In this document: piece by piece, positions 3,006-48,036 of the stretch | How the letters are laid out: every line of letters starts with the position of its first letter | Position numbering within the stretch: the stretch's first letter is position 1 | Origin: Alphaproteobacteria bacterium | GTDB lineage: Bacteria > Pseudomonadota > Alphaproteobacteria > Rs-D84 | Assembly (NCBI GenBank): GCA_009783855.1 | Contig: WRCO01000002.1 | Span: forward strand, 25,038 to 89,037 | DNA: 64,000 bases | Direction: 5' to 3' | Position numbers and translations under genes: made by a program | The notes under the pieces: model-generated | Seen by the model: the letters and a program-made list of their open reading frames with translations, nothing else | Database searches by the model: none | Told to the model about the DNA's origin: nothing

Positions 3006-3015
3006 TTTATTTCGT

Positions 3016-5514: not shown

Positions 5515-7683
5515 ATGGTATTTGGTAAACTATTCAAAAAAGATGAAAAAGCACAGTTAAACCACCCGGTCTCGGTTTCGATGGAAATCGGCGGCAAGGT
5601 GCTTACCCTTGAAACCGGACGCTTTGCAAAACAAGCGACCGCATCCGTTATGGCCACGATGGGACAGACCATGGTGCTTGCGTCCGTGGTTGCGGAAAAG
5701 ACCGCCGTCGAAGGACAGGACTTTTTCCCATTAACCGTGGATTATCAAGAAAAATTCGCATCCGCCGGAAGAATCCCGGGTTCGCGCGACCGCCGCGAAG
5801 GCCGCACCACGACAGCGGAAACATTGACAGCGCGCCTTATCGACCGGCCCATACGCCCGCTTTTCCCCGATACTTTCAAAAACAAGGTTCAGATTACGGC
5901 GACATGCTTTTCGTATGACAAGAAAAACAGCCCGGATATTTTGGCGATGATTGCGTCAAGCGCGGCTTTGGCGATATCCGGCGTTCCGTTCGGCGGTCCC
6001 GTCGGCGCGGTGCGCGTGGGATACGACGACAAGGGATATGTTTTGAATCCGGATGTCAAAACACTTGATGACTTGGAAATGGACCTTGTCGTCGCGGGCA
6101 CCAAAGACGGCGTTTTGATGGTCGAATCCGAAATCGGCGAATTGGATGAAAAGACAACGCTTGGCGCGGTTAAATTCGGTTTTGACGCGTTCCAGCTGGT
6201 CATCAAGCTTGTCGAAGAATTGAAAGAAAAAGCGGGCAAAGAAGCGTGGGCGGCCGAAGAGCTTGCCCCCGAATACAAAGCCATGCAGAAAGACTTTGAA
6301 CAGTTCGCGGGCGAAATCGAAGCGGCGCTTGGCATTTCCGACAAACTGCCGCGCCGGGATACCTTGGCATCCATACGGGACAAGGCTTTGGCGCGCATAC
6401 CGGAATTGTTTCCGGAAAGCAAGATTGCCGCCGGCACCTTGAAATCATGGGGGGCGGAAATTGTCGACGTCCTGGGTGGGCGCATTATGCGCGAAAGCAT
6501 TCTGGCGGGAAATCCCCGCGTCGATGGCCGCGACAATAAAACCGTGCGCCCCATCGAGTGCGAGGTCGGCATCCTTCCGCGCGCGCATGGTTCGGCATTG
6601 TTCACACGCGGCGAAACGCAAGGCCTGGTCACTTTGACGCTTGGCGGCACATCGGACGCTTTGCCGATTGAAAACATGGGCGGCAAGTCCGAAGAAGGTT
6701 TTATAATGAACTATAACTTTCCGGGATTTTCGGTGGGTGAGGCGAAAATGCTTCGCGGACCCGGGCGCCGTGAAATCGGGCATGGAAATTTGGCGCTTCG
6801 CGCTTTGCGCCCGATGCTTCCGACAAAGGACAAGTTTGATTACACCGTCCGCATAGTATCGGACATTTTGGAATCCGACGGGTCGTCGTCAATGGCGACG
6901 GTATGCGGCGGAACGCTTGCCATGATGGACGGCGGTGTGCCGATGACCAAACCGGTCGCGGGAATCGCCATGGGCCTTATCAAAGAAGGCGACAAGTATG
7001 CCGTGCTTTCCGACATTCTGGCGGACGAAGACCATCTTGGCGACATGGATTTCAAGGTCGCGGGAACCAAAGACGGAATCACTTCGTTGCAGATGGACCT
7101 TAAAATCACATCCGTGAATTTCGACATTATGGAAAAAGCATTGGCCCAGGCGCGCGAAGGCCGCATGCACATACTTGACGTCATGTCCGACGCGATTAAA
7201 TCGCCGCGCAAGGAACTTTCCGAATTCGCGCCCCAGGCGTTTGTCATGAAAATCCATCCGGATAAAATCCGCGAAGTGATTGGAAAGGGCGGAAGCGTCA
7301 TCAAATCCATCACCGCGGAAACGAACACCGGTATTGACCTGTCGGACGACGGCACCGTGAAAATCATGTACACGGACATTGCGGACCGCGACGCGGCGGT
7401 GGAAAGAATAAAATCCATTGTCGCAGAACCCGAAGTCGGCATGATTTACGAAGGCGTCGTGTCCGGTAAAAAGGATTTCGGACTGTTCGTGAAAGTCATG
7501 AACGGCACATTCGAATCCATGGTCCATATTTCCGAAATCACGGGCGAACGCTTGAACACCATCGAAGATGCGAAACTTTCCGAAGGCGACAAAGTGTTTG
7601 TGAAGTACCTTGGGCTTGACAAGCGTGGCAAAACCCGCATGAGCATGGTCGGAATCAATCAAAAAACGGGAGCGGAGAAATAA
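5515..7683 (+). CDS. pnp: polyribonucleotide nucleotidyltransferase (PNPase)
   Basis: 722 aa. Two RNase PH domains, a KH domain (IREVIGKGGSVIKSITAETNTGIDL) and an S1 domain. FFPLTVDYQEKFASAGRIPGSRDRREGR matches the PNPase N-terminal motif. Confidence 0.95.
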   Translation: MVFGKLFKKDEKAQLNHPVSVSMEIGGKVLTLETGRFAKQATASVMATMGQTMVLASVVAEKTAVEGQDFFPLTVDYQEKFASAGRIPGSRDRREGRTTTAETLTARLIDRPIRPLFPDTFKNKVQITATCFSYDKKNSPDILAMIASSAALAISGVPFGGPVGAVRVGYDDKGYVLNPDVKTLDDLEMDLVVAGTKDGVLMVESEIGELDEKTTLGAVKFGFDAFQLVIKLVEELKEKAGKEAWAAEELAPEYKAMQKDFEQFAGEIEAALGISDKLPRRDTLASIRDKALARIPELFPESKIAAGTLKSWGAEIVDVLGGRIMRESILAGNPRVDGRDNKTVRPIECEVGILPRAHGSALFTRGETQGLVTLTLGGTSDALPIENMGGKSEEGFIMNYNFPGFSVGEAKMLRGPGRREIGHGNLALRALRPMLPTKDKFDYTVRIVSDILESDGSSSMATVCGGTLAMMDGGVPMTKPVAGIAMGLIKEGDKYAVLSDILADEDHLGDMDFKVAGTKDGITSLQMDLKITSVNFDIMEKALAQAREGRMHILDVMSDAIKSPRKELSEFAPQAFVMKIHPDKIREVIGKGGSVIKSITAETNTGIDLSDDGTVKIMYTDIADRDAAVERIKSIVAEPEVGMIYEGVVSGKKDFGLFVKVMNGTFESMVHISEITGERLNTIEDAKLSEGDKVFVKYLGLDKRGKTRMSMVGINQKTGAEK

Positions 7684-13631: not shown

Positions 13632-14531
13632 CTAGTCCAACGCTCCCCTGTAACTTGGGTTATTTATCACTATGACCGCGCGGCGGCGCAATTGTTTAAG
13701 CTGTTGGTCGGCAAGGAACAGCGACCGCTTGAACGTCACATTCTGGCGCACGACTTCGTCAAGGTTTTCGAATTCCGCCATCTGCGTCCGCGAACAGACA
13801 ATCAAAACGGACCGGTCTTCTCCGCGCGGGGACCAAGTAAGTTCGGCAAGCCCCGCAATCCGCGCCCTTATATCTTCGGCAAGTTCGAATTCCGGAACCG
13901 TTATCCGGACCGGCACGCCGCCAAGGTTTCGCGCCTGACTCATCGCGTCGTCGCAATCCTTCGGCGTTGTCAATTTCGCCGCAATATCTTCCGGAATATC
14001 CACAAGGCGGATAAGCGTCGTATCAACGGGCAGGCCGCGCGTGCGGGAAAGAAGGGCAAGTTCGTCCCGCACGTCCGCGTCCGTTATGCTTACCGTCGGC
14101 ATTATCGTGCGGCCGATTACCATCTGCCACGCGATATGCGCGCGGGTTGATGCGCGAAGCATTTCCGCGCCGACAGGGTCAAGCGTGTCAATGGGCAGGC
14201 CCCGTGCGCGCAATGAATCCAATTCGCGCCGGACGTCCGCATCCGAAGGGTTTATTTGTATCTGCGCCGCGTGGTGAAGTTTTATATGGTCGTCTATGAT
14301 TTCTGAAAGCGCGCGGATGCGGTTGTCCGTCGATACCTGTCCCTTCATATTCATGATGCGCGCGCGCGCTGTAATGTCGCGGTCCGTTATCGGGTTGCCG
14401 TTAATGCTTGCGGCGATGGTGGCGGCGTTTGCGGTAAAGCCGCAAATAGAGCACAGAGCACAGACCAAAGAGCAAAAATGTATGCGTTTGGAAATTTTAT
14501 TCTTTAATATCGGCATTTGTTGGGTCTCCAT
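13632..14531 (-). CDS. surA: SurA-like periplasmic chaperone (N-terminal SurA domain; short form without a clear PPIase domain)
   Basis: Signal peptide. SurA_N-like helical region. Sits between lptD and rlmN, as in many alphaproteobacteria. Only 299 aa. Confidence 0.45.
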   Translation of the reverse strand: METQQMPILKNKISKRIHFCSLVCALCSICGFTANAATIAASINGNPITDRDITARARIMNMKGQVSTDNRIRALSEIIDDHIKLHHAAQIQINPSDADVRRELDSLRARGLPIDTLDPVGAEMLRASTRAHIAWQMVIGRTIMPTVSITDADVRDELALLSRTRGLPVDTTLIRLVDIPEDIAAKLTTPKDCDDAMSQARNLGGVPVRITVPEFELAEDIRARIAGLAELTWSPRGEDRSVLIVCSRTQMAEFENLDEVVRQNVTFKRSLFLADQQLKQLRRRAVIVINNPSYRGALD

Positions 14532-14570
14532 TGTTGTTATCTGTTATCTGTGCTCTGCGCGCAAAGCGCG

Positions 14571-16640
14571 CTATCTTCTTCCTTCCACCAATCTCAAGCT
14601 GAAGACAAGTTTGATGGTCGTGGTTCCGACATAGTTTTCGTCCACGCCAAAGCCGCGCCGGATTGCGCCGTCGCGCGCGTATTCAAGCCCAAGCATATAA
14701 CACGGATGTTCGTAATAAAGCCCGGCCTGTTGCCTTTGTATGCGTTCGTCCGTGATATTGTACGTCGTGCGCGCGCGAAGCCTCCACCGTTCGGTAAGTC
14801 CCGTGCCAAACCCGCCCGCGATTTCATTCTGGCGGCTTTCTTCCGTGAACGGGTCGCTTAACTGTACCGCCATTATATACCCGGCTTCGATAAAATCGGT
14901 TTTGCCGAACCGCGCCATGGATTCTATGTGGCGCAATGCGAAACTGTCGCGGTAAAACCGCGCGCGGTTGTTTATGGCGAACCAGTTTTTGTATTCAAGC
15001 GAAAGACGTCCAACAAAATCGGACCGGCCCGCGTGAAACCCGGAATTCGGGTCCAGACCGGCTGTTTCGGAAAAGTCATAGGTCTGTCCCGCAAAACCGG
15101 ATACGGATATTCCGTTCGCAGAAAAAGCCGACCAGTCAATACCGTAATCCGCATAATTGCTGTTGACCCAAAGGTCGTATCCGGCAAAGCGGTTGTTGGA
15201 AAACAAAGTCGCGTCCGACAAGACCGAACCGGCCGAATCTATGTCCGTAAACGCGGGCGAATCAAGCACGCGCATCATTGTAAACCGGGCGCGCGGCTTT
15301 AACACATGCGTCCAGTTTTCAGAACTGTTGTTTATAAGCGGAAGCGCCCATTCGATATATCCCGATGGTAAAAACCGTGTTTTGGTTCCGGTAAAGTTGG
15401 GGTCGCCTTCGAACCTTGTCATATCGGCGTTATCAAAATAATAAATATCATACCGGGCCTGGGCCGACAGGGTAATACGCTGTCCCCCCCGTATTATCCA
15501 CGGAGAGGCAACGCCGACAGAGCCAAGTATGCGCTGCATCCTGTCGGCGTTTTGGGAATTGTAAATCCCAATCATATCGCCCGTGAAAAAGGCGTAAGTG
15601 TCGGCATACAGCGGCGCCGTTTGGAAAACGCCGTGAATGTTCGGAAGAATGTCGCCGGATTGGGAAATGGTGCGCCTGTTCGGATTAACGCGGAGTTCTT
15701 GGAACGTATGCGCGCTTGCGCGGACGTATCCCGAATCCGCAAAAACCTCCACGCGCCCGCCGGAATCAAGGAACGGCTGTGCGTCATAGAATCCGTATCG
15801 TTGCAAATATGTCTTGTCGGACGTGCGTTGCAGGAATATCGTCGCGCGCGCATGGTCGCCAAGTTCAATCACATCGTTGTTGAAGACGTGCCATCTGTTG
15901 TTCCCCGCCCTGTTGCGCGTGTACGACCCTGTTGTCCGGAACTGTGACCGTTCGGCGTTAAGGCGGTGCTCTATTTGCCAAAGCGGGTTTTCGCCCGTCA
16001 GGTGCGCGGGCGTAAAGGTGAAATCATGCATATCGGAAAGCGCGATGTAGACCGGGAAATTAATCTGGGTCCCCATGCCGGTCGTCGTGTTCATGTACGG
16101 TATAAGCAGACCGGACCGCCTTCGGACCGTAGGGTCCGGATAAGCCAGATAAGGCGACCAGAATATCGGAATATTATACGCCCAGAAGACCGCGTTGTAA
16201 AACTGCATGACGCGGGTGTCGGTATCATGCCGCATGCGTGACGCCGTGACCTCCCATGCATTTATGCCGTCGTCGCAATCTTCGCATGCCGTGTACGTGA
16301 CGCGGGCCGCGGTTGTTATATTGTCGGTCCGGTCGGCCCTTTCGGCGGAAAAGAATGTCCGCCTGCCAAGCCATACCTGTACATTGTCGCCGCCGGCAAG
16401 CGCGCCCCGTTGCTCCATATGCGCGTCGGACCATGTCATGCGCTGGCCGTCGGCGGTTTCCATCTCTGCTTGTCCGACGGTTCGTATCGCCTGGGACCGT
16501 CGGTCAAATTCTATTCTTTCCGCGGTAATCGTCCGCGCGGATTCAAGGTCGACGGAAAGGGCGTACGTTGAACTAACAACCAACAACGAACAACTAATAA
16601 CCAGTGCGGTGCGAAAAAAATGAAAGGAATAATTTTGCAT
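14571..16640 (-). CDS. lptD: LPS-assembly protein LptD (organic solvent tolerance protein)
   Basis: 689 aa. Signal peptide, N-terminal OstA-like domain (AERIEFDRRSQAIRTVGQAEME) and a large C-terminal barrel. Upstream neighbour is lptG. The signal peptide contains a family B repeat-derived segment (SCSLLVVSS). Confidence 0.85.
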   Translation of the reverse strand: MQNYSFHFFRTALVISCSLLVVSSTYALSVDLESARTITAERIEFDRRSQAIRTVGQAEMETADGQRMTWSDAHMEQRGALAGGDNVQVWLGRRTFFSAERADRTDNITTAARVTYTACEDCDDGINAWEVTASRMRHDTDTRVMQFYNAVFWAYNIPIFWSPYLAYPDPTVRRRSGLLIPYMNTTTGMGTQINFPVYIALSDMHDFTFTPAHLTGENPLWQIEHRLNAERSQFRTTGSYTRNRAGNNRWHVFNNDVIELGDHARATIFLQRTSDKTYLQRYGFYDAQPFLDSGGRVEVFADSGYVRASAHTFQELRVNPNRRTISQSGDILPNIHGVFQTAPLYADTYAFFTGDMIGIYNSQNADRMQRILGSVGVASPWIIRGGQRITLSAQARYDIYYFDNADMTRFEGDPNFTGTKTRFLPSGYIEWALPLINNSSENWTHVLKPRARFTMMRVLDSPAFTDIDSAGSVLSDATLFSNNRFAGYDLWVNSNYADYGIDWSAFSANGISVSGFAGQTYDFSETAGLDPNSGFHAGRSDFVGRLSLEYKNWFAINNRARFYRDSFALRHIESMARFGKTDFIEAGYIMAVQLSDPFTEESRQNEIAGGFGTGLTERWRLRARTTYNITDERIQRQQAGLYYEHPCYMLGLEYARDGAIRRGFGVDENYVGTTTIKLVFSLRLVEGRR

Positions 16641-16642
16641 AT

Positions 16643-16677
16643 TCAGTTGTTAGTCGTTAGCTGTTAATTGTTAATTC
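16643..16677. repeat. family B repeat between lptG and lptD
   Basis: attcagttgttagtcgttagctgttaattgttaattcg. Confidence 0.65.
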
Positions 16678-22144: not shown

Positions 22145-22510
22145 ATGGCAAAATTTGCAATAAAATTCGAAACACCATATCGGTTGGCCTATGAGCATAA
22201 GATAGCCAGCATAGCGGGCAGCGATGTTACATGGGAATTTGATTTTGCCGAAAAATGGGCCGCAAAAATATTGAAAGAAATGAACGCGGGTAAAAAGATG
22301 ACGAAGCAGCTTGTCAACAAAATGGCCAAACTGGTATATCCAACTTTTGGCGCCAATGCCCCCGCGTTACACCCAATGGCCGAACAAGTGCTGGTCAAAT
22401 ATTGGGTCCACGGTTCCCAGTTTGGCGAGATTGTCGGGATGCAAAAGCTCGACATAATGAAGAAACGCCATTACGCCGAAATGACAGAATTAAGGCTTGC
22501 AAGATACTGA
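22145..22510 (+). CDS. hypothetical protein (121 aa), not RbfA
   Basis: Occupies the position where rbfA usually follows infB, but shows no RbfA KH-fold motifs. A terminator follows. Confidence 0.35.
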   Translation: MAKFAIKFETPYRLAYEHKIASIAGSDVTWEFDFAEKWAAKILKEMNAGKKMTKQLVNKMAKLVYPTFGANAPALHPMAEQVLVKYWVHGSQFGEIVGMQKLDIMKKRHYAEMTELRLARY

Positions 22511-27149: not shown

Positions 27150-28181
27150 TTAAAAACTTGCGCGGATGCCGGCCGTTATAAATGGCGAAAAGTCGCCGGC
27201 GTTTATAACCGCGCCGCCGGATGTGAAGACGCTGAAATACTGGTCTATTTTATACCGCAATGACGCAAGCCCCGTATGGGTAAGATAGGAATTCGGATGT
27301 TCGGGATTGTTGTCCCAGATGCCGACGGCGGAAAATATATAAGAAAGCGACCCGGACCAGTTAAGGAAATCGTAGGACGCGCCGATGCCCCCCTGCAGGC
27401 CGTCCGACGGAGCGGTTATCGGGTTGTTGTCGTAAATACCGCGCGCGGTTATGCCAAAGTTCCAACTTCTGTGCTGTATATTCGTGCCCAGCGCCAATTG
27501 ATACCGGGAATCGGCCGTGACGTTCGGCGCGTACGAATCCGCGGACAGGTTGTTCGGGCGGTCTATATACCCAGCGCCAATTGATACCGAATATTTCGTC
27601 CGGCCGTGCGGCATCCGGTATCTTATGCCGATGTCGGTTGCCGAATCGAAATTCGTATTGAACGGCGATACGGACATTCCGACCTGTACCGGTCTTGTCG
27701 GGACGGTCACGGTTGTCGCGCGGAACGCGTATCTTGTCCCGGTTGCGACCGGGTTGGCGATGACATTCCGGGCGCCGGTCATGTCATAGAAAAGCGGAGT
27801 GCTGTTCGCGCGAAGCGACCCGACATCGGGAAGTCCCACGCCAAGTTTCGCCGCTACGGATTCGGTCCATCCCAATTCCACGCGGCCGTACGGGCTTTCC
27901 GTAAAGATAAATATGTCGTTATAGAAATATTCGCGGTCGACTCCGGTCCGTTCAACAGAGTATACCGCGCCAAGCGTCCAGCCGTTCCATACCGCGTAAT
28001 TGGCCTGGGCCCTTATGCGATAATCGTACACCGTATATTCCGGCATACCCGCGCCGCCCGTCGCATGCCCCGAAAGGCGAAGCCCGACGCGGTTGCGGTT
28101 ATAAGTGAACGCATCGGCGCTTTGCACACAAAGCGCTGAAAGGCATAAGGCATAAGGCATAAGGCGTAAGAATTTTTTCAT
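27150..28181 (-). CDS. outer-membrane beta-barrel porin-like protein
   Basis: Signal MKKFLRLMPYALCLSALCVQSADA. C-terminal ...GIRASF. The signal peptide region contains a (ccttatg)x3 heptamer tract. Confidence 0.55.
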   Translation of the reverse strand: MKKFLRLMPYALCLSALCVQSADAFTYNRNRVGLRLSGHATGGAGMPEYTVYDYRIRAQANYAVWNGWTLGAVYSVERTGVDREYFYNDIFIFTESPYGRVELGWTESVAAKLGVGLPDVGSLRANSTPLFYDMTGARNVIANPVATGTRYAFRATTVTVPTRPVQVGMSVSPFNTNFDSATDIGIRYRMPHGRTKYSVSIGAGYIDRPNNLSADSYAPNVTADSRYQLALGTNIQHRSWNFGITARGIYDNNPITAPSDGLQGGIGASYDFLNWSGSLSYIFSAVGIWDNNPEHPNSYLTHTGLASLRYKIDQYFSVFTSGGAVINAGDFSPFITAGIRASF

Positions 28182-28245
28182 GGGCCAATTATAACACAAT
28201 AGCGTTGGCTGGCAAGAATTTTTGCAGGAACAAAATATATATGCC

Positions 28246-29196
28246 TTACGCCTTGTTGGCGTCGGCCAAGATTAACGATTGTAATTTTGTAAACGCGCGT
28301 TCTTCAATCTGTCTTACGCGTTCGCGCGAAATGCCCAATTTTTCCGACAATTGTTCAAGCGTCAGCGCCGGGTCGGACAGACGCCGCGCGACAAGAATCT
28401 CGCGGTCGCGTTCCGGCAGCGAGGCAAGGTGTTTGTGCAAAAGCTCGTGTCCGAATTTTCGAAACTGCAAATGCTCAATCCTGTCTTCGATGGATTCGGA
28501 ATCGTCCGCAAGATTGGACAGGATGTCCGTCCCTTCGCTTTCGTCGCTGTATGCGGGGCGGTTAAGCGAAAGGTCGCGCGCGCTTATGCGGCGGCTCATC
28601 CTTGTTACGTCTTGTTCCGGGACTTCCAGGTACTCCGCAATTTGTTTCGTCTGTTCGTCGGACAGGTTGTTGTCCATAATGCCAAGCGCGCGTTTCGCCC
28701 GCGCAAGGTTGAAGAACACGCGCTTTTGATTCGCGGATGTTCCGATTTTCACCATCGACCAGTTATTAAGGACGAAATCGTAAATCTCGGCCTTTATCCA
28801 AAACATCGCATAGGTCGAAAACCGAAACCCCCGGTCCGGGTCGAATTTTGATAAAGCCTGCATAAGGCCCAAATTTCCGGAAGCGATAAGTTCCGATATC
28901 GGAATGCCGTAATTCTTGAAATCATAGGCGACGGAAACCACCATGCGAAGATGGCTTGACACCAGTTTTTCCGCGGCGAACTTGTCGCGCGCATCGCGCC
29001 ATGCGACGGCGAATTCATGCTCTTCTTCGGCGGATAACAGGGGGAAAGCCTGGACCGACCTTATGTATCTTTCAAGGTTGGCGTCGTCGGACAGGGCGAC
29101 GGACGGCATGCCGTAAGCCGCCGGAAGCGCTGTCGCCGTTTTTTGGTTGTCTTTTTTCTTGTCTTTGTTTCCTTTCATGGTTAAATTATAGTGCAA
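28246..29196 (-). CDS. rpoH: RNA polymerase sigma-32 factor RpoH
   Basis: RpoH box QKRVFFNLARAKRAL. Regions 2 and 4 present (LSEKLGISRERVRQIEERAFTKL). Confidence 0.9.
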   Translation of the reverse strand: MHYNLTMKGNKDKKKDNQKTATALPAAYGMPSVALSDDANLERYIRSVQAFPLLSAEEEHEFAVAWRDARDKFAAEKLVSSHLRMVVSVAYDFKNYGIPISELIASGNLGLMQALSKFDPDRGFRFSTYAMFWIKAEIYDFVLNNWSMVKIGTSANQKRVFFNLARAKRALGIMDNNLSDEQTKQIAEYLEVPEQDVTRMSRRISARDLSLNRPAYSDESEGTDILSNLADDSESIEDRIEHLQFRKFGHELLHKHLASLPERDREILVARRLSDPALTLEQLSEKLGISRERVRQIEERAFTKLQSLILADANKA

Positions 29197-29261: not shown

Positions 29262-29966
29262 ATGAAATCCATGCTTGAAAAGTTCAAAAAGAACAAAACC
29301 GCCGTGCCGGCCCAGAAAAAAACACTTTCGGACCATGCGGAAGACGCGCTGTACCGCGAAGTTAATGAGGAAGTACAGGCACAGCAAATGTACGATTTCA
29401 TAAGAAAATACCTGCGCGTTCTTGTTGCGGTTGCGGCGCTTGCGGTCGTGGTTGTTGTCGCGCTTCAATTGTCAAAGGCTCAAAATGCCAAAACTTTGCG
29501 GCAATCCGCATCGGCATACGAATCGGCCATAATGATGCTTGACGCGGGCAACCCGGTTGCCGCCCGCGAAGCGCTTGTCCGCGCGGCAAGAAGCTCAAGC
29601 GGCGGTATGGCTGACCTTGCATTGTTTTCGGCCGCAAGGATAGATTTGCAAATGGGCGACAGCGACGCAGGAGTGGCAAAACTTGAACAGCTTGTCCGGA
29701 ATGGCCGGACGCGCGATTTTCGCGACCTTGCGCTTGTCAAGCTTGCCATGATGAGGGCGGAACACATGACGGGACGTCAGTTCGAGCAGTTCCTTGCCCC
29801 CGTACAGACCAAACGGTCGCCGTTCTATTACACCGGCATGCTTTTGGTTGCGAAAAAATATCTCTCTGTCGGCGAAGATGTCGCCGCCCGCAGATGGCTT
29901 GACAGAATTACGTCCGACCGCGGCGCCCCGCCAAGCGTTGTGGCAGAGGCGGAAATGTTGAGGTAG
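29262..29966 (+). CDS. YfgM-like membrane-anchored TPR protein (UPF0070)
   Basis: Cytoplasmic N-terminus, one TM (VLVAVAALAVVVVVAL) and a periplasmic TPR-like domain. Immediately upstream of the bamB-like gene, as in the yfgM-bamB arrangement. Confidence 0.55.
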   Translation: MKSMLEKFKKNKTAVPAQKKTLSDHAEDALYREVNEEVQAQQMYDFIRKYLRVLVAVAALAVVVVVALQLSKAQNAKTLRQSASAYESAIMMLDAGNPVAAREALVRAARSSSGGMADLALFSAARIDLQMGDSDAGVAKLEQLVRNGRTRDFRDLALVKLAMMRAEHMTGRQFEQFLAPVQTKRSPFYYTGMLLVAKKYLSVGEDVAARRWLDRITSDRGAPPSVVAEAEMLR

Positions 29967-29971
29967 AACAA

Positions 29972-30066
29972 AGAGCATAGGGCACAGATAAGTGTTGAAA
30001 TTAAAAAGATATTTTACGGATATTAAAAAAGCATCTATGCTCTATGCTCTATGCTCTATGCTCTTG
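29972..30066 (+). promoter_or_regulatory. conserved 5' cassette E1 plus (CTATGCT)x4 heptamer tract preceding the bamB-like gene
   Basis: cacagataagtgttgaaattaaaaagatattttacggatattaaaaaagcatct followed by atgctctatgctctatgctctatgctc. Near-identical copies are at 38930-39003 and 53440-53530; a diverged copy is at 40925-41040. Confidence 0.7.
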
Positions 30067-30765
30067 CTTTTGGCTGCCTGTTCCAAAACCGACCCTGTTT
30101 TGCCCGGAACGCGGCATCCCATATTCCATGCCGGCGGAATCAATCTTTTGGACCGGGCGGTGCCGGATTCCGCGCTTGCCGATATACGGGAGACCGGCAT
30201 ATATGACAATACGTATCGACAGGATTCGAACAATGTCGTCTGGCGGGATACAGAACGCGTATTTTCCGGACTTCCCACAAGCGCCCGCGTTGCGGGCGAA
30301 AGACGGCCGATGGTGGCGGGCGACCATATAATCGCAGGACTGTCGACCGGCGAAGTCGTAAAGGTAAACCGCAACACCAAAGAACCCGAATGGGTCGCGG
30401 ATGTATTCAGGACGTCCGCCATGACCGGCGGGTCAAGCATCCTTGACATAGTCGCGCCTGTTGTCATTGAAAACGACAGATTCATATATGCCGGCGGGCT
30501 TGGCAACGCTTTCTGCAAACTTGATTTTAACACGGGCGCTCGGATATGGTGCGCCGACATCGGCGTGGGCAAGCCGTTCATAGTCCGTGCGGGCGTATCA
30601 TACGTTGTCGGCACGAACGGATTCCTGTATGCGATTGACACCCGCTTGGGCGATGCGTTCTGGCGTGCGGAAATAAGAAGACAGGCAGAGCCGAAAATCT
30701 CCGGCAACGTTATTGCCGTTGGACGGGAAAAATTCGATGCAAGAACGGGGGATAAATTAAAGTGA
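29992..30765 (+). CDS. bamB: BamB-like PQQ beta-propeller lipoprotein (short form, 257 aa)
   Basis: Lipobox LLLAAC|S. PQQ-like repeats (DRFIYAGGLGNAFCKLDFNTGARIWCADIGVG, YVVGTNGFLYAIDTRLGDAFWRAEI). The start is ambiguous (GTG at 29992 or ATG at 30037). Confidence 0.55.
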   Translation: MLKLKRYFTDIKKASMLYALCSMLLLLAACSKTDPVLPGTRHPIFHAGGINLLDRAVPDSALADIRETGIYDNTYRQDSNNVVWRDTERVFSGLPTSARVAGERRPMVAGDHIIAGLSTGEVVKVNRNTKEPEWVADVFRTSAMTGGSSILDIVAPVVIENDRFIYAGGLGNAFCKLDFNTGARIWCADIGVGKPFIVRAGVSYVVGTNGFLYAIDTRLGDAFWRAEIRRQAEPKISGNVIAVGREKFDARTGDKLK

Positions 30766-32708: not shown

Positions 32709-32744
32709 AATAACAGTTGTTAGCTGTTAGTTGTTAGTTTTTAA
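32709..32744. repeat. family B repeat at the 3' flank of the T4CP gene
   Basis: cagttgttagctgttagttgttagttttt. Confidence 0.65.
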
Positions 32745-34980
32745 CTTCCCTTGTCTCCCCCGTCCCGTAATCGTATACTTTCGGCACGCCGGGGTACCCC
32801 ATTGTCGCGTGGTGCGACGGGACAAGAAATTCGGGCAACGCCGCCGCGCGCGGAATATCGGTAAGTTTGAACAAATCTTTTTCTTTGCCCGGCCAGACCC
32901 ACGGGACGTCCGCCTCAATCGGGCGATGCGGATAGCCCTGTAAAATCACAAGAAGTTTATCCGAATCAAGTTTCATTATGTCCATCGGACTGTAAAGCAG
33001 CGCCGCTTCTTTTTTGTCGTCTTTTACTTCGCCGGTTTTGTCGTCCGTCTTTTCTTCAATCTTTTTCTGGTATCCTATCATCCTGCTGAACTTGTCCGCA
33101 GTGTCGTAACTGTTTTGACGGAACACAAGTTTCACCGCTGTTGTCGATATTATGGTTTCGGCGGCGTCCGCACCGTATTTGTCCCGGATTTGGGCAATAT
33201 CCTGACCGATTATAAGATACGAAACCTGTTGTCCGCGGCCAAGGTCGGGCCCCTGAATCACAGCCTGCATCTTTTGCATTTTCGGCATTTCGTCCAGCAC
33301 GAACAAGACCGGCGTCGGCCCCAGTTTTTGACCGGCATGCGTATCTTCCGGCTTGTTGGTAAGAAGAAACGCCGACATAAGTTCGATGAATATCGCGCTT
33401 ATCGGATTCAATGCCTCCGCATCGACCATGTTTATGGAAAGGTAAACGGTAACCGGCTCCCACTTTCCCGTCTTTTTGTTTTTGATTCCGCGCAAATCGG
33501 AAAAATGAAAATCGGAATGCGACGTGCGGTTGCGGACGGCCGCGTTTCGGAAAATGTTAAGCCCCGACAATGCCGTCGACATAATCGACCCGCGTTCCTT
33601 GTCCGGCGTGTTTGCAAGCTGTGTAAGTTCTTGGATGGACCGGTGCGCGTATCCGTATTGGCGCGCCTCTTCGACCGCGTCGTGGAACAAATCCTTCATC
33701 GGGTCGGCCATCATCACCATCTGGTCGCCTTGTTTGCGCCTGTCTTCCAATTCTTCGGCGATTCTTATCTGGTTCGTGGTAAGCCAGTCAAGAACCATGG
33801 AAAGCGACGCCTCTTTGCCAACCCATGCGGCCGGTATATTCGCCCAGGTTCCGACGGGAACATAATTCGCGGCCGACAAAGCGCCCGTGGAAAGCATATG
33901 CCGCGCCGCCGCCGCGTTCGGGTCCCGCATCATCGCATACCGTTCGTCAAGAAGGACTCTGTCGGTCTGGTCGAATGTTCCGGAATCAAGGCGCGATTTG
34001 AAATAATCGTTCCATTTTGCGCGCTCTACCTTTGACACAATAAATTGTAAGAATCCGGTAAGCGCCGCGCGGCCCGTAGTGACCCAGTGCGGGTCGGCGG
34101 ACGACGTCGCCTTGTCCGCGACAAGCGTCGCGCAAATAGAGTCTATATAAAGGTCGCGTTTTTCTTGAACAAACGGCACGTGTTCGGGCGACAACGGATT
34201 CCACGACGGATAATATATGCCGCGTTCCGGGTCGTCTTGACCCGCCCAGTTTATGATGAACACCGGACCGATGCCCGCGCGGTACCCGCTTGTCAAAGCG
34301 TCCAATTCAGGTTTGGGGTCGTTGACAATCATGGACACCTTATCGCATTTGAATATGGTCGGCATAACTATGCCGCGGGATTTACCGGACCCCGGCGGCG
34401 CGACGCAAAGCGCGGACAATGTTTCGTCCAGCATAAGGAATTTCTTTTTGAATTTGCCAAGGACGATTATAAAACCGCCGAACAGGCCTTCTTTGTTCTT
34501 TTTGTCGCGGCCCATGCCCTTTACATCATTTTCGTTCGCCTTGCGGGAAGAATCGTCCGCCCACCAGTTCGTGCCATGCGGATTAAATTCGCCAAGGAAC
34601 GTCGGAATCGTAAGCAAATGATACGCGATTATTGCAAACAAGGGCGTAATAACCGGTAAATCGGGGCGAAGGACCGCGCGGACAAGCCATGCCGGAATCT
34701 CTGCAAAAATGCGCAGACCGAACGTATGCAGAATCTGGTCGAAATAAACATGAAGCCACGTGATTGTCGCCGGGCTCCACCCGTACCGCCATATATGCTC
34801 GATTGCAAAGGAAAGTCCGAACGCGGCGATGGATGCAAACCAGGCAAGGAAAAGATAACGGTATTTCCAGAACACAAGGCGCATGTGCGTCCGTTTGTCG
34901 CCCTTGTACGCGTCGGACGAAAAGATGCCAAGGCCCTTGCCTTTACCGCTTACAGATAAGATGTTGAACTTTGCAACCAT
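32734..34980 (-). CDS. type IV secretion coupling protein (VirD4/TraG/TrwB family ATPase), orphan
   Basis: 748 aa. N-terminal TM pair. Walker A LCVAPPGSGKSRGIVMPT (compare VirD4/TraG xAPTRSGKGVGxVIPN). Walker B PVLFVLDEMPKM. No other T4SS genes are adjacent. Confidence 0.6.
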   Translation of the reverse strand: MVAKFNILSVSGKGKGLGIFSSDAYKGDKRTHMRLVFWKYRYLFLAWFASIAAFGLSFAIEHIWRYGWSPATITWLHVYFDQILHTFGLRIFAEIPAWLVRAVLRPDLPVITPLFAIIAYHLLTIPTFLGEFNPHGTNWWADDSSRKANENDVKGMGRDKKNKEGLFGGFIIVLGKFKKKFLMLDETLSALCVAPPGSGKSRGIVMPTIFKCDKVSMIVNDPKPELDALTSGYRAGIGPVFIINWAGQDDPERGIYYPSWNPLSPEHVPFVQEKRDLYIDSICATLVADKATSSADPHWVTTGRAALTGFLQFIVSKVERAKWNDYFKSRLDSGTFDQTDRVLLDERYAMMRDPNAAAARHMLSTGALSAANYVPVGTWANIPAAWVGKEASLSMVLDWLTTNQIRIAEELEDRRKQGDQMVMMADPMKDLFHDAVEEARQYGYAHRSIQELTQLANTPDKERGSIMSTALSGLNIFRNAAVRNRTSHSDFHFSDLRGIKNKKTGKWEPVTVYLSINMVDAEALNPISAIFIELMSAFLLTNKPEDTHAGQKLGPTPVLFVLDEMPKMQKMQAVIQGPDLGRGQQVSYLIIGQDIAQIRDKYGADAAETIISTTAVKLVFRQNSYDTADKFSRMIGYQKKIEEKTDDKTGEVKDDKKEAALLYSPMDIMKLDSDKLLVILQGYPHRPIEADVPWVWPGKEKDLFKLTDIPRAAALPEFLVPSHHATMGYPGVPKVYDYGTGETREVKN

Positions 34981-35033
34981 AGTGGTATTATAACATAATA
35001 ACTGACAACTGACAACTAACAGCTAACAACTAG
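34981..35033. repeat. family B repeat at the 5' flank of the T4CP gene
   Basis: aactgacaactgacaactaacagctaacaac. Confidence 0.65.
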
Positions 35034-35035
35034 AG

Positions 35036-35722
35036 ATGAAAAATATACCAAGGATTTATATAAATGAAAATTTGGAAGTTGGGCGAAGTTTCCCGGTGTC
35101 CAGGGACATCGCGCATTATTTGACCCGTGTTATGCGAACGGACAGATGTTTGGTGTTCAATTATGGAAAAGAGTTCAAGGCTGAGCTTTCAGTTGTCAGC
35201 TGTTCGTTGTTAGTTGTCAGTCCTACTGGGCGGCCCGACCCGTCGAACAATTTGACGCTTGCGTTCGCGCCGGTAAAACAGGCGCGGATGGAGGAAATGC
35301 TTTCCATGGCGACCCAGATGGGCGTAAAAAGGCTTCAGCCCGTAATCACTGCCTTTGTAAATGAACATCATCCGAAATGGGAAAGGATTAAAAAAATTGT
35401 CATAGAGGCGGCGGAGCAATCCGGAAGAAACAGCGTGCCGGAATTGGCAGAGCCGCAAAAATTTACAGAATTTCTGCAGGGGGTAAAAGACTTGGTTTTT
35501 GCGGACGAACGGGCCGCGAGCCCCCGGTCCTTTCCAGATTCCGGGCTTGCGTTGCACGCGCCCCGGAATGACACAATCGTTTTGATAGGGTCAGAGGGCG
35601 GATTTTCAGACGCGGAATTTGATGCGCTGGACAAAGCGGGCGCGACTGGCATAAACCTTGGGCCGACAATTCTTCGGGCGGAGGTCGCTGCGGTGGTGGC
35701 GATTGCGAAAGTTGTTGGTTAA
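35036..35722 (+). CDS. rsmE: 16S rRNA (uracil1498-N3)-methyltransferase RsmE, with an in-frame family B repeat insertion
   Basis: N-terminus MKNIPRIYINENLEVG. SPOUT C-terminal IVLIGSEGGFSDAEFDALDKAGATGINLGPTILRAE. Residues ELSVVSCSLLVVSPTG are encoded by repeat 35188-35222. Confidence 0.8.
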   Translation: MKNIPRIYINENLEVGRSFPVSRDIAHYLTRVMRTDRCLVFNYGKEFKAELSVVSCSLLVVSPTGRPDPSNNLTLAFAPVKQARMEEMLSMATQMGVKRLQPVITAFVNEHHPKWERIKKIVIEAAEQSGRNSVPELAEPQKFTEFLQGVKDLVFADERAASPRSFPDSGLALHAPRNDTIVLIGSEGGFSDAEFDALDKAGATGINLGPTILRAEVAAVVAIAKVVG

Positions 35723-38923: not shown

Positions 38924-38929
38924 AAATAG

Positions 38930-39003
38930 AGCAAAGACAATAGAGCGCAGATAAATGTTGAGATTAAAAAGATATTTTACGGATATTAAAAAAGCATCTA
39001 TGC
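38930..39003 (+). promoter_or_regulatory. conserved 5' cassette E2 (no heptamer expansion)
   Basis: cgcagataaatgttgagattaaaaagatattttacggatattaaaaaagcatctatgct. Confidence 0.7.
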
Positions 39004-40307
39004 TTTTGCCTGTGCGAACGCGTTCTCGCAGCGAGCGCGGCGCGACGCTTGTCGAACTTCTTCTTGCGCTGGCGGTGGCGGCGGCCATGCTTCCATTTAT
39101 AATAAGACAGGCCGACGTGCGGACCCGCCGCGCGGAAAATATAAAAGCCGCCGCCGACCTTGGCAAAGTCAAATCCGCGCTTGAAAGATATATGGAAGCG
39201 AACAGGCACGAGCTTTTCTCGACCATAAGCCGGAACGTCGTGCGCGTATCGATTTCCGATTTGGAAGAACACGGGCTTGATACCGCCAATCTTGACAAGT
39301 CGGAACAGTTCCAGATGCGCGTCGTTAAAAGCGCGGACCGGGGCGGGCGGTCGTTTCTTCAGGGCGTCGTCATCATGGACACGGAAGGCATCGCGCCGAT
39401 AAGGACGCGCGAAATCGCGGCAATCGCCGGCGGCGGCGCGGGATTCGCCGACGATAACATAACATACGGCGCATTCGGAACATGGCGCGTAAGCGCGAAC
39501 GTATGGAACGCGCGGTTTACCGACAGGTCGCTTCTTGAAGTCACGGATGCCATACGGTCGGGCGAAGAATTCCTGCGCCGCATAGTGTACGAAGACGGCG
39601 GCGCGATGATGCATTCGCCGCTTGCCCTTGGCGGGCACGACATAGTCAACGCGCGGTCGGTGTTCGCGGAATCCGCGCGCTTTGCCGAATTCGTGAATTT
39701 TACGAACGCATCGGCAAGCCGCCTTGTCATGGAAGGCAAACCGACACTTGACGGCAATGTGACCATATCCGGAGAATCAACGGTTTCGGGCGTGCTGAGT
39801 TCCGATTCACGAAGCATGGAAGTCGGCCGCATGACGGTATCCGGCACTTCGCGGTTCGGCACGGTTAATGCAAACGAATTATGGGCGGGCGATTTGGAGC
39901 TTGCCGGATTTTCGGTCCAAATTGACGAGCGTCGCCCCGCCACGCTGTCGGTCGGCCGGTCGATTGACATGACCGGCGGACGCGTTGTCTCCATGCTTGT
40001 CGCGGTGGGACACGGGGGAAGCACTACGCCGCGGCTTTTCGTAAAAGACCGGGTTGAAGACGCAAGAAATCCCGAATATTTTTGGGATGTCGCGACGGGT
40101 GAAGCCATGCTTTCCGACATATTTATCCCCGCGCTTTCCAATATGGCGCGGACCGCCATAGGCCGCGAACAGCCGGGAACGGAATCTCATCGCATCCTGT
40201 CCCAGGTTGCGAACAACGCCAACGCGACGGTCGCGGATTATATGCGCGCGCTTGCCGAAATAGAACGCCGCGTCACGGCAAGGTTTGATGCGTTGAATTT
40301 GGAATAA
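38955..40307 (+). CDS. TadE/G-like pseudopilin-family protein 3 (SERG|ATLVELLLALAVAAAMLPF)
   Basis: Class III signal with Glu at +5. Beta-helix-like repeats (GNVTISGESTVSGVLSS...MTVSGTSRFGTV). The probable true start is the ATG at 39000 (MLLPVRTRSRSERG leader). Confidence 0.45.
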   Translation: MLRLKRYFTDIKKASMLLPVRTRSRSERGATLVELLLALAVAAAMLPFIIRQADVRTRRAENIKAAADLGKVKSALERYMEANRHELFSTISRNVVRVSISDLEEHGLDTANLDKSEQFQMRVVKSADRGGRSFLQGVVIMDTEGIAPIRTREIAAIAGGGAGFADDNITYGAFGTWRVSANVWNARFTDRSLLEVTDAIRSGEEFLRRIVYEDGGAMMHSPLALGGHDIVNARSVFAESARFAEFVNFTNASASRLVMEGKPTLDGNVTISGESTVSGVLSSDSRSMEVGRMTVSGTSRFGTVNANELWAGDLELAGFSVQIDERRPATLSVGRSIDMTGGRVVSMLVAVGHGGSTTPRLFVKDRVEDARNPEYFWDVATGEAMLSDIFIPALSNMARTAIGREQPGTESHRILSQVANNANATVADYMRALAEIERRVTARFDALNLE

Positions 40308-40924: not shown

Positions 40925-41040
40925 CACATAGAACACAGATAATAGAACATAGATAGGAGAACGAACAAATGTTGAGATTCAAAAACAATTTTACAGGTCT
41001 TTGGAAAGCATCTGTGCTCTATGTTCTGTGCTCGATGCTC
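40925..41040 (+). promoter_or_regulatory. diverged conserved 5' cassette E3 with degenerate heptamer tract
   Basis: acagataatagaacatagataggagaacgaacaaatgttgagattcaaaaacaattttacaggtctttggaaagcatctgtgctctatgttctgtgctcgatgctc. Confidence 0.55.
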
Positions 41041-41493
41041 TTGGTCTCGGCGCGAGCCGCGCCGACATGTCCGCCGTGCGTATGCCCGTCCATACCGCCG
41101 TCGATTTTTTCGACAAGCACGGATTGGGAAGCGGTGACGGGGATGCGCCTTTCCGAATTTATGGTTTCGTTCGGTCGCGATGGAAGCATCGGCAATATCG
41201 GGTGGGAGATATATTTCCTTGACGGATTTCCATGCTATGGCCAATCGGAGACCGCGCGCATGTGGGTAAGTCCGTCGCGCCATTACGCAATCGACGGCGG
41301 CGCCGACGCGCGCGGCCGCATCACGTGCCTTTATGCGCCGAAAACCGTAAAGCTTGCATGGCGCGAGGCAAGGCGCGACGCGGCGCAGGCGCGCACACGC
41401 GGGATGGCCGTTTGCGAAGTGGAGCACAGCGGACGGAACATCACAATCCGATTGGACAAATGCGAAAGGACGGATTGGGGTGATTTGCGATAA
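40969..41493 (+). CDS. hypothetical secreted Cys-rich protein (174 aa)
   Basis: Signal peptide after the cassette leader. APTCPPCVCPSIPP motif. 8 Cys. Confidence 0.4.
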   Translation: MLRFKNNFTGLWKASVLYVLCSMLLVSARAAPTCPPCVCPSIPPSIFSTSTDWEAVTGMRLSEFMVSFGRDGSIGNIGWEIYFLDGFPCYGQSETARMWVSPSRHYAIDGGADARGRITCLYAPKTVKLAWREARRDAAQARTRGMAVCEVEHSGRNITIRLDKCERTDWGDLR

Positions 41494-41512
41494 CAACCGT
41501 AAGGCGTAAGGC

Positions 41513-42478
41513 GTGAAGCGTGAGGAATTTGTTTTCATCGTTGAAGAACAGGACGCGGGTTTGCGTGTCGATAAATTTATCGCGTCCAGATTGACCGAAT
41601 ATTCTCGTTCTGAAATCCAAAAATTTCAAATAACGAAATCTGGCGCTGCAACAAAGCTTTCCGAAAAGGTAAAGCTTGGTGAAAAATATGAAGTTGCCGT
41701 TTTAATAAATATGCCTTGTGCCTTGTGTCCTATGCCTTCTTCGAAAAAAATATCCTTGGATATTTTATTCGAAGACGACGACATCATCGTTGTCAACAAG
41801 CCGCGCGGAATCGCAATGTATCCGGGCGCGGGACGCGACAGCGGAACATTGGTGCAAAGCGTTCTGGCGCATACGAATCTGTCGTCCATCGGCGCGGACG
41901 GCATGCGGCCCGGCGTTGTTCACCGCATCGACAAAGACACGTCCGGCGTTGTGATTTTTGCAAAAACGGATTCGGCGCACCGTGCGCTTGTCACGGTTTT
42001 TTCCGAACACAATCTGGTGCGGAAATATATCGCGTTTATTTGGGGCGTGCCGAACTGGCTTTCCGCGGATATTTCCGGAAACATAGGGCGGTCGACGCGC
42101 AACCGCCAAAAAATGACTATGGTCAAAACCGGCGGAAAGCCCGCGCACACAAGCGCCGAGGCTATAAACGTCTGGCCGCGCGCGAATATTTCGGAATTGC
42201 GGTGCACTTTGGACACCGGCCGCACGCATCAGATTCGCGTCCATCTTGCCGCGCATGGTTTTCCCGTTTTGTGCGACCCGCTTTACGGGCGGGGCGGGGC
42301 GCGGCTGGGCAGTGTCAAGGACCCGGAATTATTGGAATTTCTGCGTGAAAACCGCGGTCAGATGCTTCATGCCGAAGTATTGGAATTAACGCATCCGATA
42401 ACCGGCGCGCCATGCAAATTCCGCGCTAAATTGCCGGGGGACATGAGTGCGTTGAAAGAGATTCTTAACGAAAAGTGA
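41513..42478 (+). CDS. rluD: pseudouridine synthase RluD/RluC family, with an in-frame family C heptamer repeat insertion
   Basis: S4-like N-terminus. Catalytic HRIDKDTSGVVIFAKT. GTG start. Residues NMPCALCPMPSS are encoded by atgccttgtgccttgtgtcctatgcctt (41711-41740). Confidence 0.85.
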   Translation: MKREEFVFIVEEQDAGLRVDKFIASRLTEYSRSEIQKFQITKSGAATKLSEKVKLGEKYEVAVLINMPCALCPMPSSKKISLDILFEDDDIIVVNKPRGIAMYPGAGRDSGTLVQSVLAHTNLSSIGADGMRPGVVHRIDKDTSGVVIFAKTDSAHRALVTVFSEHNLVRKYIAFIWGVPNWLSADISGNIGRSTRNRQKMTMVKTGGKPAHTSAEAINVWPRANISELRCTLDTGRTHQIRVHLAAHGFPVLCDPLYGRGGARLGSVKDPELLEFLRENRGQMLHAEVLELTHPITGAPCKFRAKLPGDMSALKEILNEK

Positions 42479-42605
42479 AAAATGAAGAGTGAAAAGTTGT
42501 TGTGTCGCGACAAAGCCGCGAACGCAACCACTTTTCACCCGTCATTATTCATTTGATTGATTTCCCCCAATATGATAAAATAAGTTGAAATAAAGAGAGG
42601 ATAAT

Positions 42606-45577: not shown

Positions 45578-45946
45578 TCAGGCTGTCTGTATATTTATCT
45601 CATCCGGCTTATATTCCGGCACAGGTTCAGCATAGGCATGTATGCCCGCGCCGCGAATTTCATCCCAAAGGTCTATCCAATACGGATTCTTGCTTATTAT
45701 CAAACGCAATTTCCAATTGCGTTTCCATTCTTTTAACTGTCTTTCCCGCCGAACCATTAATTCCATATCTTCAAAAAATTCATAATATACGATTTTATCA
45801 ACACCGTATTTCGTGGTAAACCCGCCGTAGAATTTTTCCTTGTGCTGTGCGACGCGGGCAATCAAATCGGAACTTGACCCGATGTACAGCGTTCCCATTT
45901 TATCGCTTGCTATAATATATACAAATCCGGCTTTCTTATTCAGCAT
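45578..45946 (-). CDS. GIY-YIG nuclease superfamily protein (small stand-alone type)
   Basis: FVYIIASDKMGTLYIGSSSDLIARVAQHKEK...YGVDKIVYYEFFEDMELMVRRERQLKEW gives the GIY...YIG motif plus conserved R and E. Confidence 0.7.
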   Translation of the reverse strand: MLNKKAGFVYIIASDKMGTLYIGSSSDLIARVAQHKEKFYGGFTTKYGVDKIVYYEFFEDMELMVRRERQLKEWKRNWKLRLIISKNPYWIDLWDEIRGAGIHAYAEPVPEYKPDEINIQTA

Positions 45947-47118: not shown

Positions 47119-47192
47119 TGGTTGGGGCGCAGGGACTCGAACCCCGATAAACAGAACCAAAATCTGTTGTCCTACCATTAGACGACACCCCA
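47119..47192 (-). tRNA. tRNA-Gln (anticodon TTG)
   Basis: Reverse complement: tggggtgtcgtctaatggtaggacaacagattttggttctgtttatcggggttcgagtccctgcgccccaacca. Anticodon loop ttTTGgt, T-arm GGTTCGAGTCC, CCA encoded. Confidence 0.8.
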
Positions 47193-47816: not shown

Positions 47817-48036
47817 ATTAGTGGCTGGTGGCTAGTGATTAGTGGTTGGTGGTTTGTGGCTTGTGCCGGTGACTGGTACGGTTGTCTGATATATTAGACA
47901 ATCATTAATTAACGCATAAATTAAAGGCTGTCCACTATAGTGGACAGCCTTTAATTACAGGCCATTAATACGAACCACCGGCACGAGTCACGAGCACGAA
48001 TCGCCAGCACAAGCCACAAGCACAAGTCACCGGCCA
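47817..48036. repeat. largest family A composite palindromic repeat (~220 bp) with central perfect palindrome ggctgtccactatagtggacagcc
   Basis: Left arm tggtggctagtgattagtggttggtggtttgtggcttgtgccggtgactgg. Right arm cgaaccaccggcacgagtcacgagcacgaatcgccagcacaagccacaagcacaagtcaccgg. Confidence 0.7.

Follow-up and report, generated by a model that had tools for sequence, protein, structure and literature searches.

A 64,000-nt stretch of DNA from an uncultured gut alphaproteobacterium (assembly GCA_009783855.1, contig WRCO01000002.1, positions 25,038 to 89,037 of the forward strand; hereafter the window, whose own numbering is used) carries short tandem heptanucleotide tracts inside signal-peptide coding regions. 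The genes in question are designated E1 (a bamB-like lipoprotein gene), E2 (pilin-like), E3 and E4, together with a gene for a porin-like outer membrane protein (OMP). The original prediction, made from the sequence alone, was that these tracts might undergo slipped-strand phase variation in the manner of the Neisseria opa genes, with a footprint of a heptamer-based repeat family offered as the alternative. We find that the flagged tracts are all 3′ arms of inverted repeats, each enclosing a start codon. The explanation that we favor, with somewhat better than even confidence, is that the tracts belong to lineage-specific heptamer hairpin repeats resembling the short tandemly repeated repetitive (STRR) elements of cyanobacteria, in which stem pairing is kept while the repeat units turn over, and for which a role in RNA is inferred.

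The tract of E1 consists of exactly four CTATGCT units at 30035-30062 (plus strand), followed by CT to position 30064, and lies directly after a segment termed the cassette, as had been claimed; Tandem Repeats Finder (TRF) assigned it to 30034-30068 with a period of 7, 5.1 copies and 96% matches. A tract is likewise present in E4 (4.4 copies, 95% matches by TRF), but it lies ∼15 nt to the right of the interval first assigned to it (53487-53520) and is made up of CTATGCT, three CTGTGCT units and CT instead of four CTGTGCT units. The units are thus homogenized within tracts, with A in all units of E1 and G in three units of E4. The OMP tract was correctly located; it reads AAGGCAT ×3, AAGGCGT and AAG on the plus strand, which corresponds to (ATGCCTT)n in the minus-strand gene. 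The degenerate version reported for E3 comprises four units, and E2, which was said to have none, carries a single unit. Copy numbers are indeed low (3 to 5.1 units per tract by TRF). Mapping from start codon to cleavage site confirmed the placement in signal-peptide coding regions: the tracts all sit downstream of the start codon and ahead of the predicted point of signal-peptidase cleavage, and those of E1, E4 and OMP lie within the hydrophobic h-region. The E1 signal peptide is MLKLKRYFTDIKKASMLYALCSMLLLLAAC with lipobox LAAC, and its tract codes for the h-region MLYALCSML. The signal peptides of E4 and OMP are predicted to end in FAADA↓AP and QSADA↓FT, respectively.

Period 7 stands out over the whole window. 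Exact tracts of at least three units number three for period 7 and from zero to two for each other period from 4 to 15. Using a stringent score that tolerates mismatches, seven period-7 tracts were obtained versus none in each of 20 Markov shuffles, and a looser score gave 16 period-7 tracts versus 0 or 1 for periods 5, 6, 8 and 9. Of the 68 rows returned by TRF, 27 have this period. The units are diverse (AAGGCAT, AGAGCAC, AACAACT, CGGTATT, AAAGTGA, GTGGCTG and others). Approximately 19 of the 27 tracts have a reverse-complement partner at most 250 nt away that outscores nearly all random windows. This family, which extends throughout the window, supports the alternative offered originally, in which a heptamer repeat family left these tracts as its footprint.

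At the flagged loci, the 5′ arms adjoin the stop codon of the upstream gene, and the loop contains the start codon. Because the E1 partner TAGAACAAAGAGCATAGGGCACAGAT ends just before the GTG, the cassette is the loop of the hairpin and the flagged E1 tract is its 3′ arm. The E1 hairpin folds with a predicted free energy of −33.5 kcal/mol (z = −4.3 versus shuffles); z values for other hairpins are listed in Table 1. The loop of the OMP hairpin (28215-28188, minus strand) contains a near-consensus promoter, TTGCCA-16-TGtTATAAT, with 11/12 matches. The OMP ATG comes 6 nt past the −10 hexamer, and the mRNA of this gene may therefore be leaderless.

Loci from relatives and from other assemblies are given L-numbers, and W denotes the window. 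Sequence identical to the window was found in two metagenome-assembled genomes (MAGs) at NCBI and in three contigs of the European Nucleotide Archive, and the nearest genomes are termite-gut MAGs and Candidatus Enterousia-like gut lineages. Among 86 loci, no relative turned up that was close without being identical; L004 equals L007, and the heptamer-rich lineages all have DNA identities of at most 86%. About a dozen of 80 BamB loci (species representatives) are rich in period 7, most of them from termite MAGs and similarly named MAGs. Period-7 tracts are lacking in most other loci, and periods 5, 6, 8 and 9 are near zero everywhere.

A hairpin at the start of bamB is present in six species whose BamB proteins are ∼45-58% identical to that of the window, and the unit differs in each: AGAGCAT in W, AAGGCAT in L004, GGAATAA in L006, AAGGCAA in L021, AGAGCAA in L024 and AATGAAA in L076. 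When 5′ and 3′ bamB arms were cross-paired among species, each 5′ arm paired best with its own 3′ arm, with energies on the diagonal of −30 to −42 kcal/mol. The stems in relatives are nearly perfect, with 22-30 Watson-Crick pairs, and their folds are strongly favored over shuffles (bamB of L004, z = −8.2; OMP of L004, z = −9.1; bamB of L006, z = −9.2). Hairpins at OMP and rsmE are likewise kept in relatives, with genome-specific units. In the sampled regions of L004 and L006, many gene junctions carry tracts or inverted pairs, and the same unit recurs at several genes of a genome (AAGGCAT at bamB, OMP, rsmE and LpoB in L004; GGAATAA at bamB and OMP in L006).

The bamB start has been called variously (proteins P0121, P0122, P0123 and P0001), at a GTG or TTG in the loop, at an ATG in the first unit or at an ATG in the last unit. 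Since annotation pipelines choose different starts, the repeats confound start calling. One MAG contig stops within bamB, giving the partial product P0001, and the contig L005 of a relative begins 15 nt before its bamB; contigs of these MAGs may break partly because of the repeats. Two observations on arrays in relatives are recorded here. L006 has an unusually long (AGTAACC)×12 array at 1763-1849, whose shorter inverted partner (1916-1946) lies downstream of the OMP gene. In Candidatus Enterousia MAGs, a gene for a PF05635 “23S rRNA intervening sequence protein” lies outside rRNA (L041, 788-1325; L030, 826-1323) and is flanked by inverted (AACAGAG/AACAGAT)n arrays of 43-105 nt.

Hairpin arms also occur in frame inside genes for cytoplasmic proteins, namely murG, fmt, an inositol-monophosphatase-family gene, rsmE, a pseudouridine synthase gene and a RecN-like gene. 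In rsmE the 3′ arm is an insert located 155 nt from the start of the gene and read in frame as SVVSCSLLVVS. In the pseudouridine synthase gene the 3′ arm codes for MPCALCPMP, ahead of the catalytic domain (residues 90-247), and alignment of the two arms on the sense strand gives 15 Watson-Crick, 8 G:U and 2 A:C positions. MurG contains two inserts of ∼10 aa each, SGIRHSDTVS and SEYRIPNAEYR, which are encoded by mutually complementary heptamer tracts flanking GKLRVVYTGLPVRKDFIDA; by our own reading, this loop segment is native MurG sequence. With tracts or whole hairpins in frame within cytoplasmic housekeeping genes, on/off switching is implausible.

The 5′ arm, a purine-rich reverse complement of the tract, fills the short spacer that follows the stop codon of the upstream gene, and 0-9 nt separate its end from the next start codon. 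The loop supplies that start codon together with the charged n-region, and the 3′ arm is read as the h-region, where pyrimidine-rich units free of stops, such as CTATGCT (LYALCSM), can be tolerated. Complementarity of the stem is maintained as the unit sequence changes between species, and copy number stays at about four; on this reading, the genes are constitutively in frame and are not contingency loci. The stem probably forms in the mRNA, where it would regulate the downstream cistron. Start-proximal tracts are purine-rich in sense orientation and often resemble a Shine-Dalgarno (SD) motif (TAAGG, GGAG), and the complementary 3′ arms would mask such 5′ arms. In a polycistronic mRNA the stem could thereby occlude the SD and start region. 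Alternatively, it could serve as a double-stranded RNA (dsRNA) target of at least 20 bp for RNase III, since stems of at least 20 bp are substrates of this enzyme. Expression of the downstream cistron would in either case be tied to upstream translation or processing. A ribosome that terminates at the upstream stop codon, which the 5′ arm adjoins, could open the stem (translational coupling).

Several results weigh against this interpretation. Eight of the 27 window tracts have no clear inverted partner, and the hairpins of E4 and E2 are weak. When whole regions were folded, the sense strand was more stable than the antisense strand in only 16 of 26 hairpins; alignments restricted to the arms gave 37 G:U versus 21 A:C oppositions on the sense strand, a marginal difference (binomial p ∼0.05, our own estimate). 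Due to the promoter inside the OMP loop, the gene's own mRNA would lack the 5′ arm. In L004, inverted tracts occupy a divergent intergenic region (6224-6252 and 6378-6408), each 1-8 nt upstream of the start of its own gene, and the two arms therefore cannot share a transcript. These divergent tracts are purine-rich in sense orientation (ACGGAAA, ACGGTAA), and because of them single tracts may act as elements of the 5′ untranslated region (UTR) with no hairpin partner. Perfect repeats and homogenization of units within tracts imply slippage or gene conversion over evolutionary time. Comparison of the window with L001 (20.7 kb, six tracts), L002 and L003 revealed zero indels, but these assemblies are 99.995-100% identical and represent essentially one population, such that their near-identity makes this a weak test of tract-length stability.

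Because of the count of 16 in 26 folds, the OMP loop promoter and the L004 divergent pair, a selfish or neutral palindromic DNA remains a serious rival, possible although on balance doubtful. Such DNA would have no function in the cell. Slippage would expand the arms, their complementarity would be preserved either by gene conversion from locus to locus or by intramolecular template switching (quasipalindrome correction), and the element would persist wherever it is tolerated, as in intergenic spacers, signal-peptide h-regions and protein surface loops. Such an origin accords with the in-frame arms within essential cytoplasmic genes, which recall Rickettsia palindromic elements, and with the weak asymmetry between sense and antisense strands. 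It also fits the recurrence of a few unit families at many loci per genome, as with AAGGCAT in L004 and GGAATAA in L006, and near-perfect stems that suggest recent homogenization. The family is moreover rich in a subset of loci only and absent from most Candidatus Enterousia and livestock-gut loci. Two features nevertheless suggest selection: the start positions at bamB, OMP and rsmE are kept at only ∼45-58% BamB identity, and the 5′ arm consistently falls between stop and start codons and is purine-rich and SD-like.

The selfish-palindrome explanation also draws on a module shared by unrelated genes. The cassette is identical over 33 nt at 30003, 38966 and 53471 and codes for M-L-R/K-L-K-R-Y-F-T-D-I-K-K-A-S. 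It is part of a module of ∼85 nt, consisting of the 5′ arm, an ATG or GTG start, MLRLKRYFTDIKKAS codons and the 3′ arm, which is present with 91-94% identity at 29962-30045, 38927-39004 and 53450-53533 and in a degenerate copy at 40926-41041. The four carriers encode BamB, a pilin-like protein, a small secreted protein rich in Cys and a multi-pass membrane protein of 490 aa. Outside the window there is a fifth cassette carrier, P0142 (99 aa); when the N-terminal 40 aa of E4 were searched exhaustively, only P0142 and P0128, the representative of the E4 cluster, were returned. Neither a degenerate back-translation of the cassette (KRYFTDIKKA), searched against genome and metagenome contig collections, nor a chimeric 40-aa N-terminal query gave any match. 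L004 has its own version of a cassette on both bamB and OMP. This distribution suggests that a start-codon/signal-peptide cassette is mobile or has spread by gene conversion. An extension of this idea, which we regard as rather unlikely, is that the module is a self-homogenizing and possibly mobile cassette that supplies unrelated envelope genes with a start codon and with the N-terminal half of their signal peptides and places them under common dsRNA control (RNase III or SD occlusion), perhaps having arisen from elements related to intervening sequences (IVSs) with heptamer-array stems flanking a PF05635 gene. If so, the cassette would be a new class of bacterial repeat, both coding and regulatory, upheld by compensatory concerted evolution of its two arms.

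Slipped-strand mispairing of the opa type, in which unit number would set the reading frame and switch BamB, E4 and OMP on or off, we judge to be unlikely. The frame logic of the original prediction is correct: the unit length is not divisible by three, the tract lies between start codon and cleavage site, and in simulations the gain or loss of one or two units left E1, E4 and OMP products of only 22-117 aa, whereas a change of three units kept all three in frame. The units match one another perfectly or nearly so, the pilin-like protein and OMP come from classes that are often phase variable, and heptamer numbers do vary elsewhere, with two or three units in the Coxiella IVS (PMC4990558) and variable numbers in hmw (PMC12721329). 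However, no evidence of such switching was found. The tracts have 3-4 units here versus at least 11 in natural hmw tracts, and copy number is equal (four units each) in E1, E3, E4 and P0142. A comparison of ON and OFF frame states across copies, as proposed originally, showed every tract-bearing window gene and every bamB ortholog examined to be in frame. No length variant, in or out of frame, was seen in any assembly or 90% cluster, the assemblies being essentially one population: the peptide encoded by the tract is identical in all members of the 90% clusters of E1, E4, OMP, E2, E3, the SurA-like protein and RsmE, differences in length stem only from start calls or contig ends, and the tract is unchanged in an E4 variant with L291P. 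Nor are the tracts confined to genes for surface proteins or antigens. BamB, LptD and the SurA-like protein function in envelope biogenesis, others are cytoplasmic enzymes, and switching off murG or fmt, which are essential and contain similar tracts, would be lethal. Slippage also leaves the complementary partner unexplained.

An element acting at the level of DNA is very unlikely. It might form a cruciform, be bound by a repeat-binding protein that modulates promoters, or invert the segment with the start codon. The promoter-like site between the OMP arms, the inverted pair flanking a divergent promoter region in L004 and the long inverted arrays around the PF05635 gene of Candidatus Enterousia could be read in this way, but many hairpins are within operons or coding regions where a promoter is not expected, and because units are many and different, a single sequence-specific binder or recombinase is unlikely. 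Inversion was rejected as a switch: the orientation of the loop is the same in all four assemblies, and the reverse complement of the E1 loop, as read from the sequence, is without an ATG and contains TAA triplets. Selection on the peptide (the LCALCS/MPYALC signal-peptide motif) or chance is extremely unlikely and the former was rejected, since, despite the recurrence of alike hydrophobic peptides in several signal peptides, the units also occur in non-coding complementary 5′ arms and in the opposite orientation, and the periodicity is exact in DNA and is not produced by shuffles.

Table 1. Heptamer tracts, hairpins and associated genes in the window (strand relative to the contig; z, fold energy relative to shuffled sequences)
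Feature	Positions	Strand	Remarks
RecN/SMC-like open reading frame	437-508	+	both arms in frame
Intercistronic heptamer hairpin, GTAAGGC family	3014-3080	−	inverted-pair search
rnpA-yidD junction hairpin	4896-5014	−	inverted-pair search
SurA-like start hairpin	14448-14560	−	arms CAGAGCACAGATAACAGATAACA and TGCTCTTTGGTCTGTGCTCTGTGCTCT; z −4.5; secreted 294-aa product
lptD start hairpin	16571-16676	−	3′ arm codes for LVISCSLLVVS of signal peptide; z −6.1
OMP gene	27150-28181	−
OMP 3′ arm, (ATGCCTT)n	28140-28170	−	fold z −3.8
OMP 5′ arm CAAGGCGTAAGGCAT	28240-28260	−	contains TAA stop of upstream sigma-factor gene
YfgM-like gene, upstream of bamB	29262-29966	+	TPR_21
E1 5′ arm TAGAACAAAGAGCATAGGGCACAGAT	29964-29989	+	starts at TAG stop of YfgM-like gene; ends 2 nt before GTG
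E1 loop (cassette)	29990-30034	+	GTG/TTG start (29992/29995) and n-region codons LKLKRYFTDIKKAS
bamB-like lipoprotein gene (E1)	29992-30765	+	Pfam PQQ_2
E1 tract, (CTATGCT)×4 + CT, hairpin 3′ arm	30035-30064	+	TRF, inverted-pair search, fold
rsmE hairpin	34996-35221	+	5′ arm ends 3 nt before ATG; arms 90% complementary
E2 module	38927-39012	+	cassette and one unit; weak hairpin, z −1.7
E2 gene, pilin-like	38955-40307	+
E3 module	40926-41041	+	degenerate 5′ arm; ATG at 40969; degenerate four-unit 3′ arm, 41011-41041; z −2.5
Pseudouridine synthase hairpin (“rluD” label; Pfam PseudoU_synth_2)	41498-41738	+	5′ arm at gene start
Hairpin after pseudouridine synthase gene, AAAGTGA family	42470-42554	+	inverted-pair search
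E4 5′ arm GGATGGAGCACAGAT	53443-53457	+	includes GGAG SD motif
E4 gene	53460-54932	+
E4 3′ arm	53503-53532	+	z −2.4
murG hairpin	57889-58010	+	both arms in frame, between its two Pfam domains

The 294-aa secreted protein in Table 1 was assigned as SurA-like from gene order only and has no Pfam match. A search of the window with Rfam detected no known RNA family besides two tRNAs. A perfect palindrome of 19 + 19 nt at 47919-47956 lies within a heptamer-flanked region ∼730 nt from a tRNA gene (47122-47192), and twin GC-rich hairpins beginning GGGGCAAATGATAT are located at 54937-55036, just downstream of E4; these are probably terminators. Other genes observed in the window are one for a VirD4/TraG-type coupling protein (32734-34980), which adjoins housekeeping genes, a small open reading frame (ORF) with a weak match to Tad4 (anti-Thoeris) at 22145-22510, and a stand-alone GIY-YIG ORF at 45578-45946.

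By analogy, the closest known kind of element is the cyanobacterial STRR sequence. STRRs are 7-bp hairpin repeats between genes, for example in the hupS-hupL spacer, for which transcript stabilization or translational coupling has been proposed (PMC2670836), and, judging from the title of Vioque 1997 as cited in PMC2858038, they are also present in the gene for RNase P RNA. The window repeats share with them tandem 7-nt units, several families per genome and many loci, mostly at gene boundaries, that are capable of forming hairpins. They differ in that the host is not a heterocystous cyanobacterium with STRR1-3, the units are different, pairing of the arms systematically spans start codons, and translation of the 3′ arm yields an h-region or an in-frame insert of an enzyme. 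TAACTGA repeats of marine Beggiatoaceae, Cyanobacteria and Bacteroidetes occur as 2-6 units a few nt before starts, including those of essential genes, and a function in translational regulation has been proposed (MacGregor 2015, PMC4679880). The window has comparable short heptamer sets near starts, and some of its units are similar (AACTGAC, ACTGACA). The TAACTGA genome, however, has one dominant unit, with 169 direct sets and one indirect set, whereas the window has many families with mostly inverted partners within the coding region.

The nearest functional analog is the hmw repeat hairpin of Haemophilus influenzae, where the (ATCTTTC)n repeats of hmw1A and hmw2A contribute to a 5′-UTR hairpin that is cleaved by RNase III (PMC12721329; PMC8262952). 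There, as predicted for the window, a transcribed heptamer repeat precedes the gene of a surface protein and supplies an arm of a long hairpin, and this hairpin controls expression. The right arm in hmw is a G-rich region, the repeat is wholly within the UTR, and natural tracts have at least 11 units in varying number (PMC12721329); window tracts have 3-5 units with no variation seen, and their 3′ arm is coding. The CTCTT repeats of Neisseria opa resemble the window tracts in placing a unit that is not a multiple of three between the start codon and the mature protein, such that a change in unit number shifts the frame. Tracts of opa number ∼7-28 units, occur in a gene family dedicated to antigens and vary in length within a culture; those of the window are short, do not belong to an antigen family and showed no polymorphism among the near-identical assemblies.

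Like Rickettsia palindromic elements, the window repeats are dispersed hairpins in a small alphaproteobacterial genome that can insert in frame (murG, RecN-like gene), but they have no single consensus of 100-150 bp, their heptamer arms are locus-specific, and only the E1/E2/E4 module is shared. Some are intercistronic, as are repetitive extragenic palindromic (REP) sequences, yet they comprise several unit families and not the one consensus of REP, BIME or REPIN elements; no RAYT or other transposase was found among the ORFs scanned, which cover part of the window. In the Coxiella burnetii IVS, (GACAGAT)×2-3 lies just before the ORF start, with an RNase III site at the first repeat (PMC4990558). 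The L041 and L030 arrays resemble GACAGAT, and 5′ arms of the E family in the window contain ACAGATA. The window elements, in contrast, are outside rRNA and have no PF05635 ORF, and any evolutionary link to IVSs is speculative.

If the hairpin interpretation is correct, a small-genome gut lineage marks many of its gene starts with heptamer stems whose sequence changes while pairing is kept, which would constitute a large natural experiment in compensatory evolution. A repeat family would have been co-opted as signal-peptide coding sequence and tolerated within essential enzymes, and heptamer repeats of the STRR and TAACTGA type would be extended to a new phylum-level group with the addition of a testable structural rule. 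Note that repeat-based “phasome” screens should not score these tracts as contingency loci.

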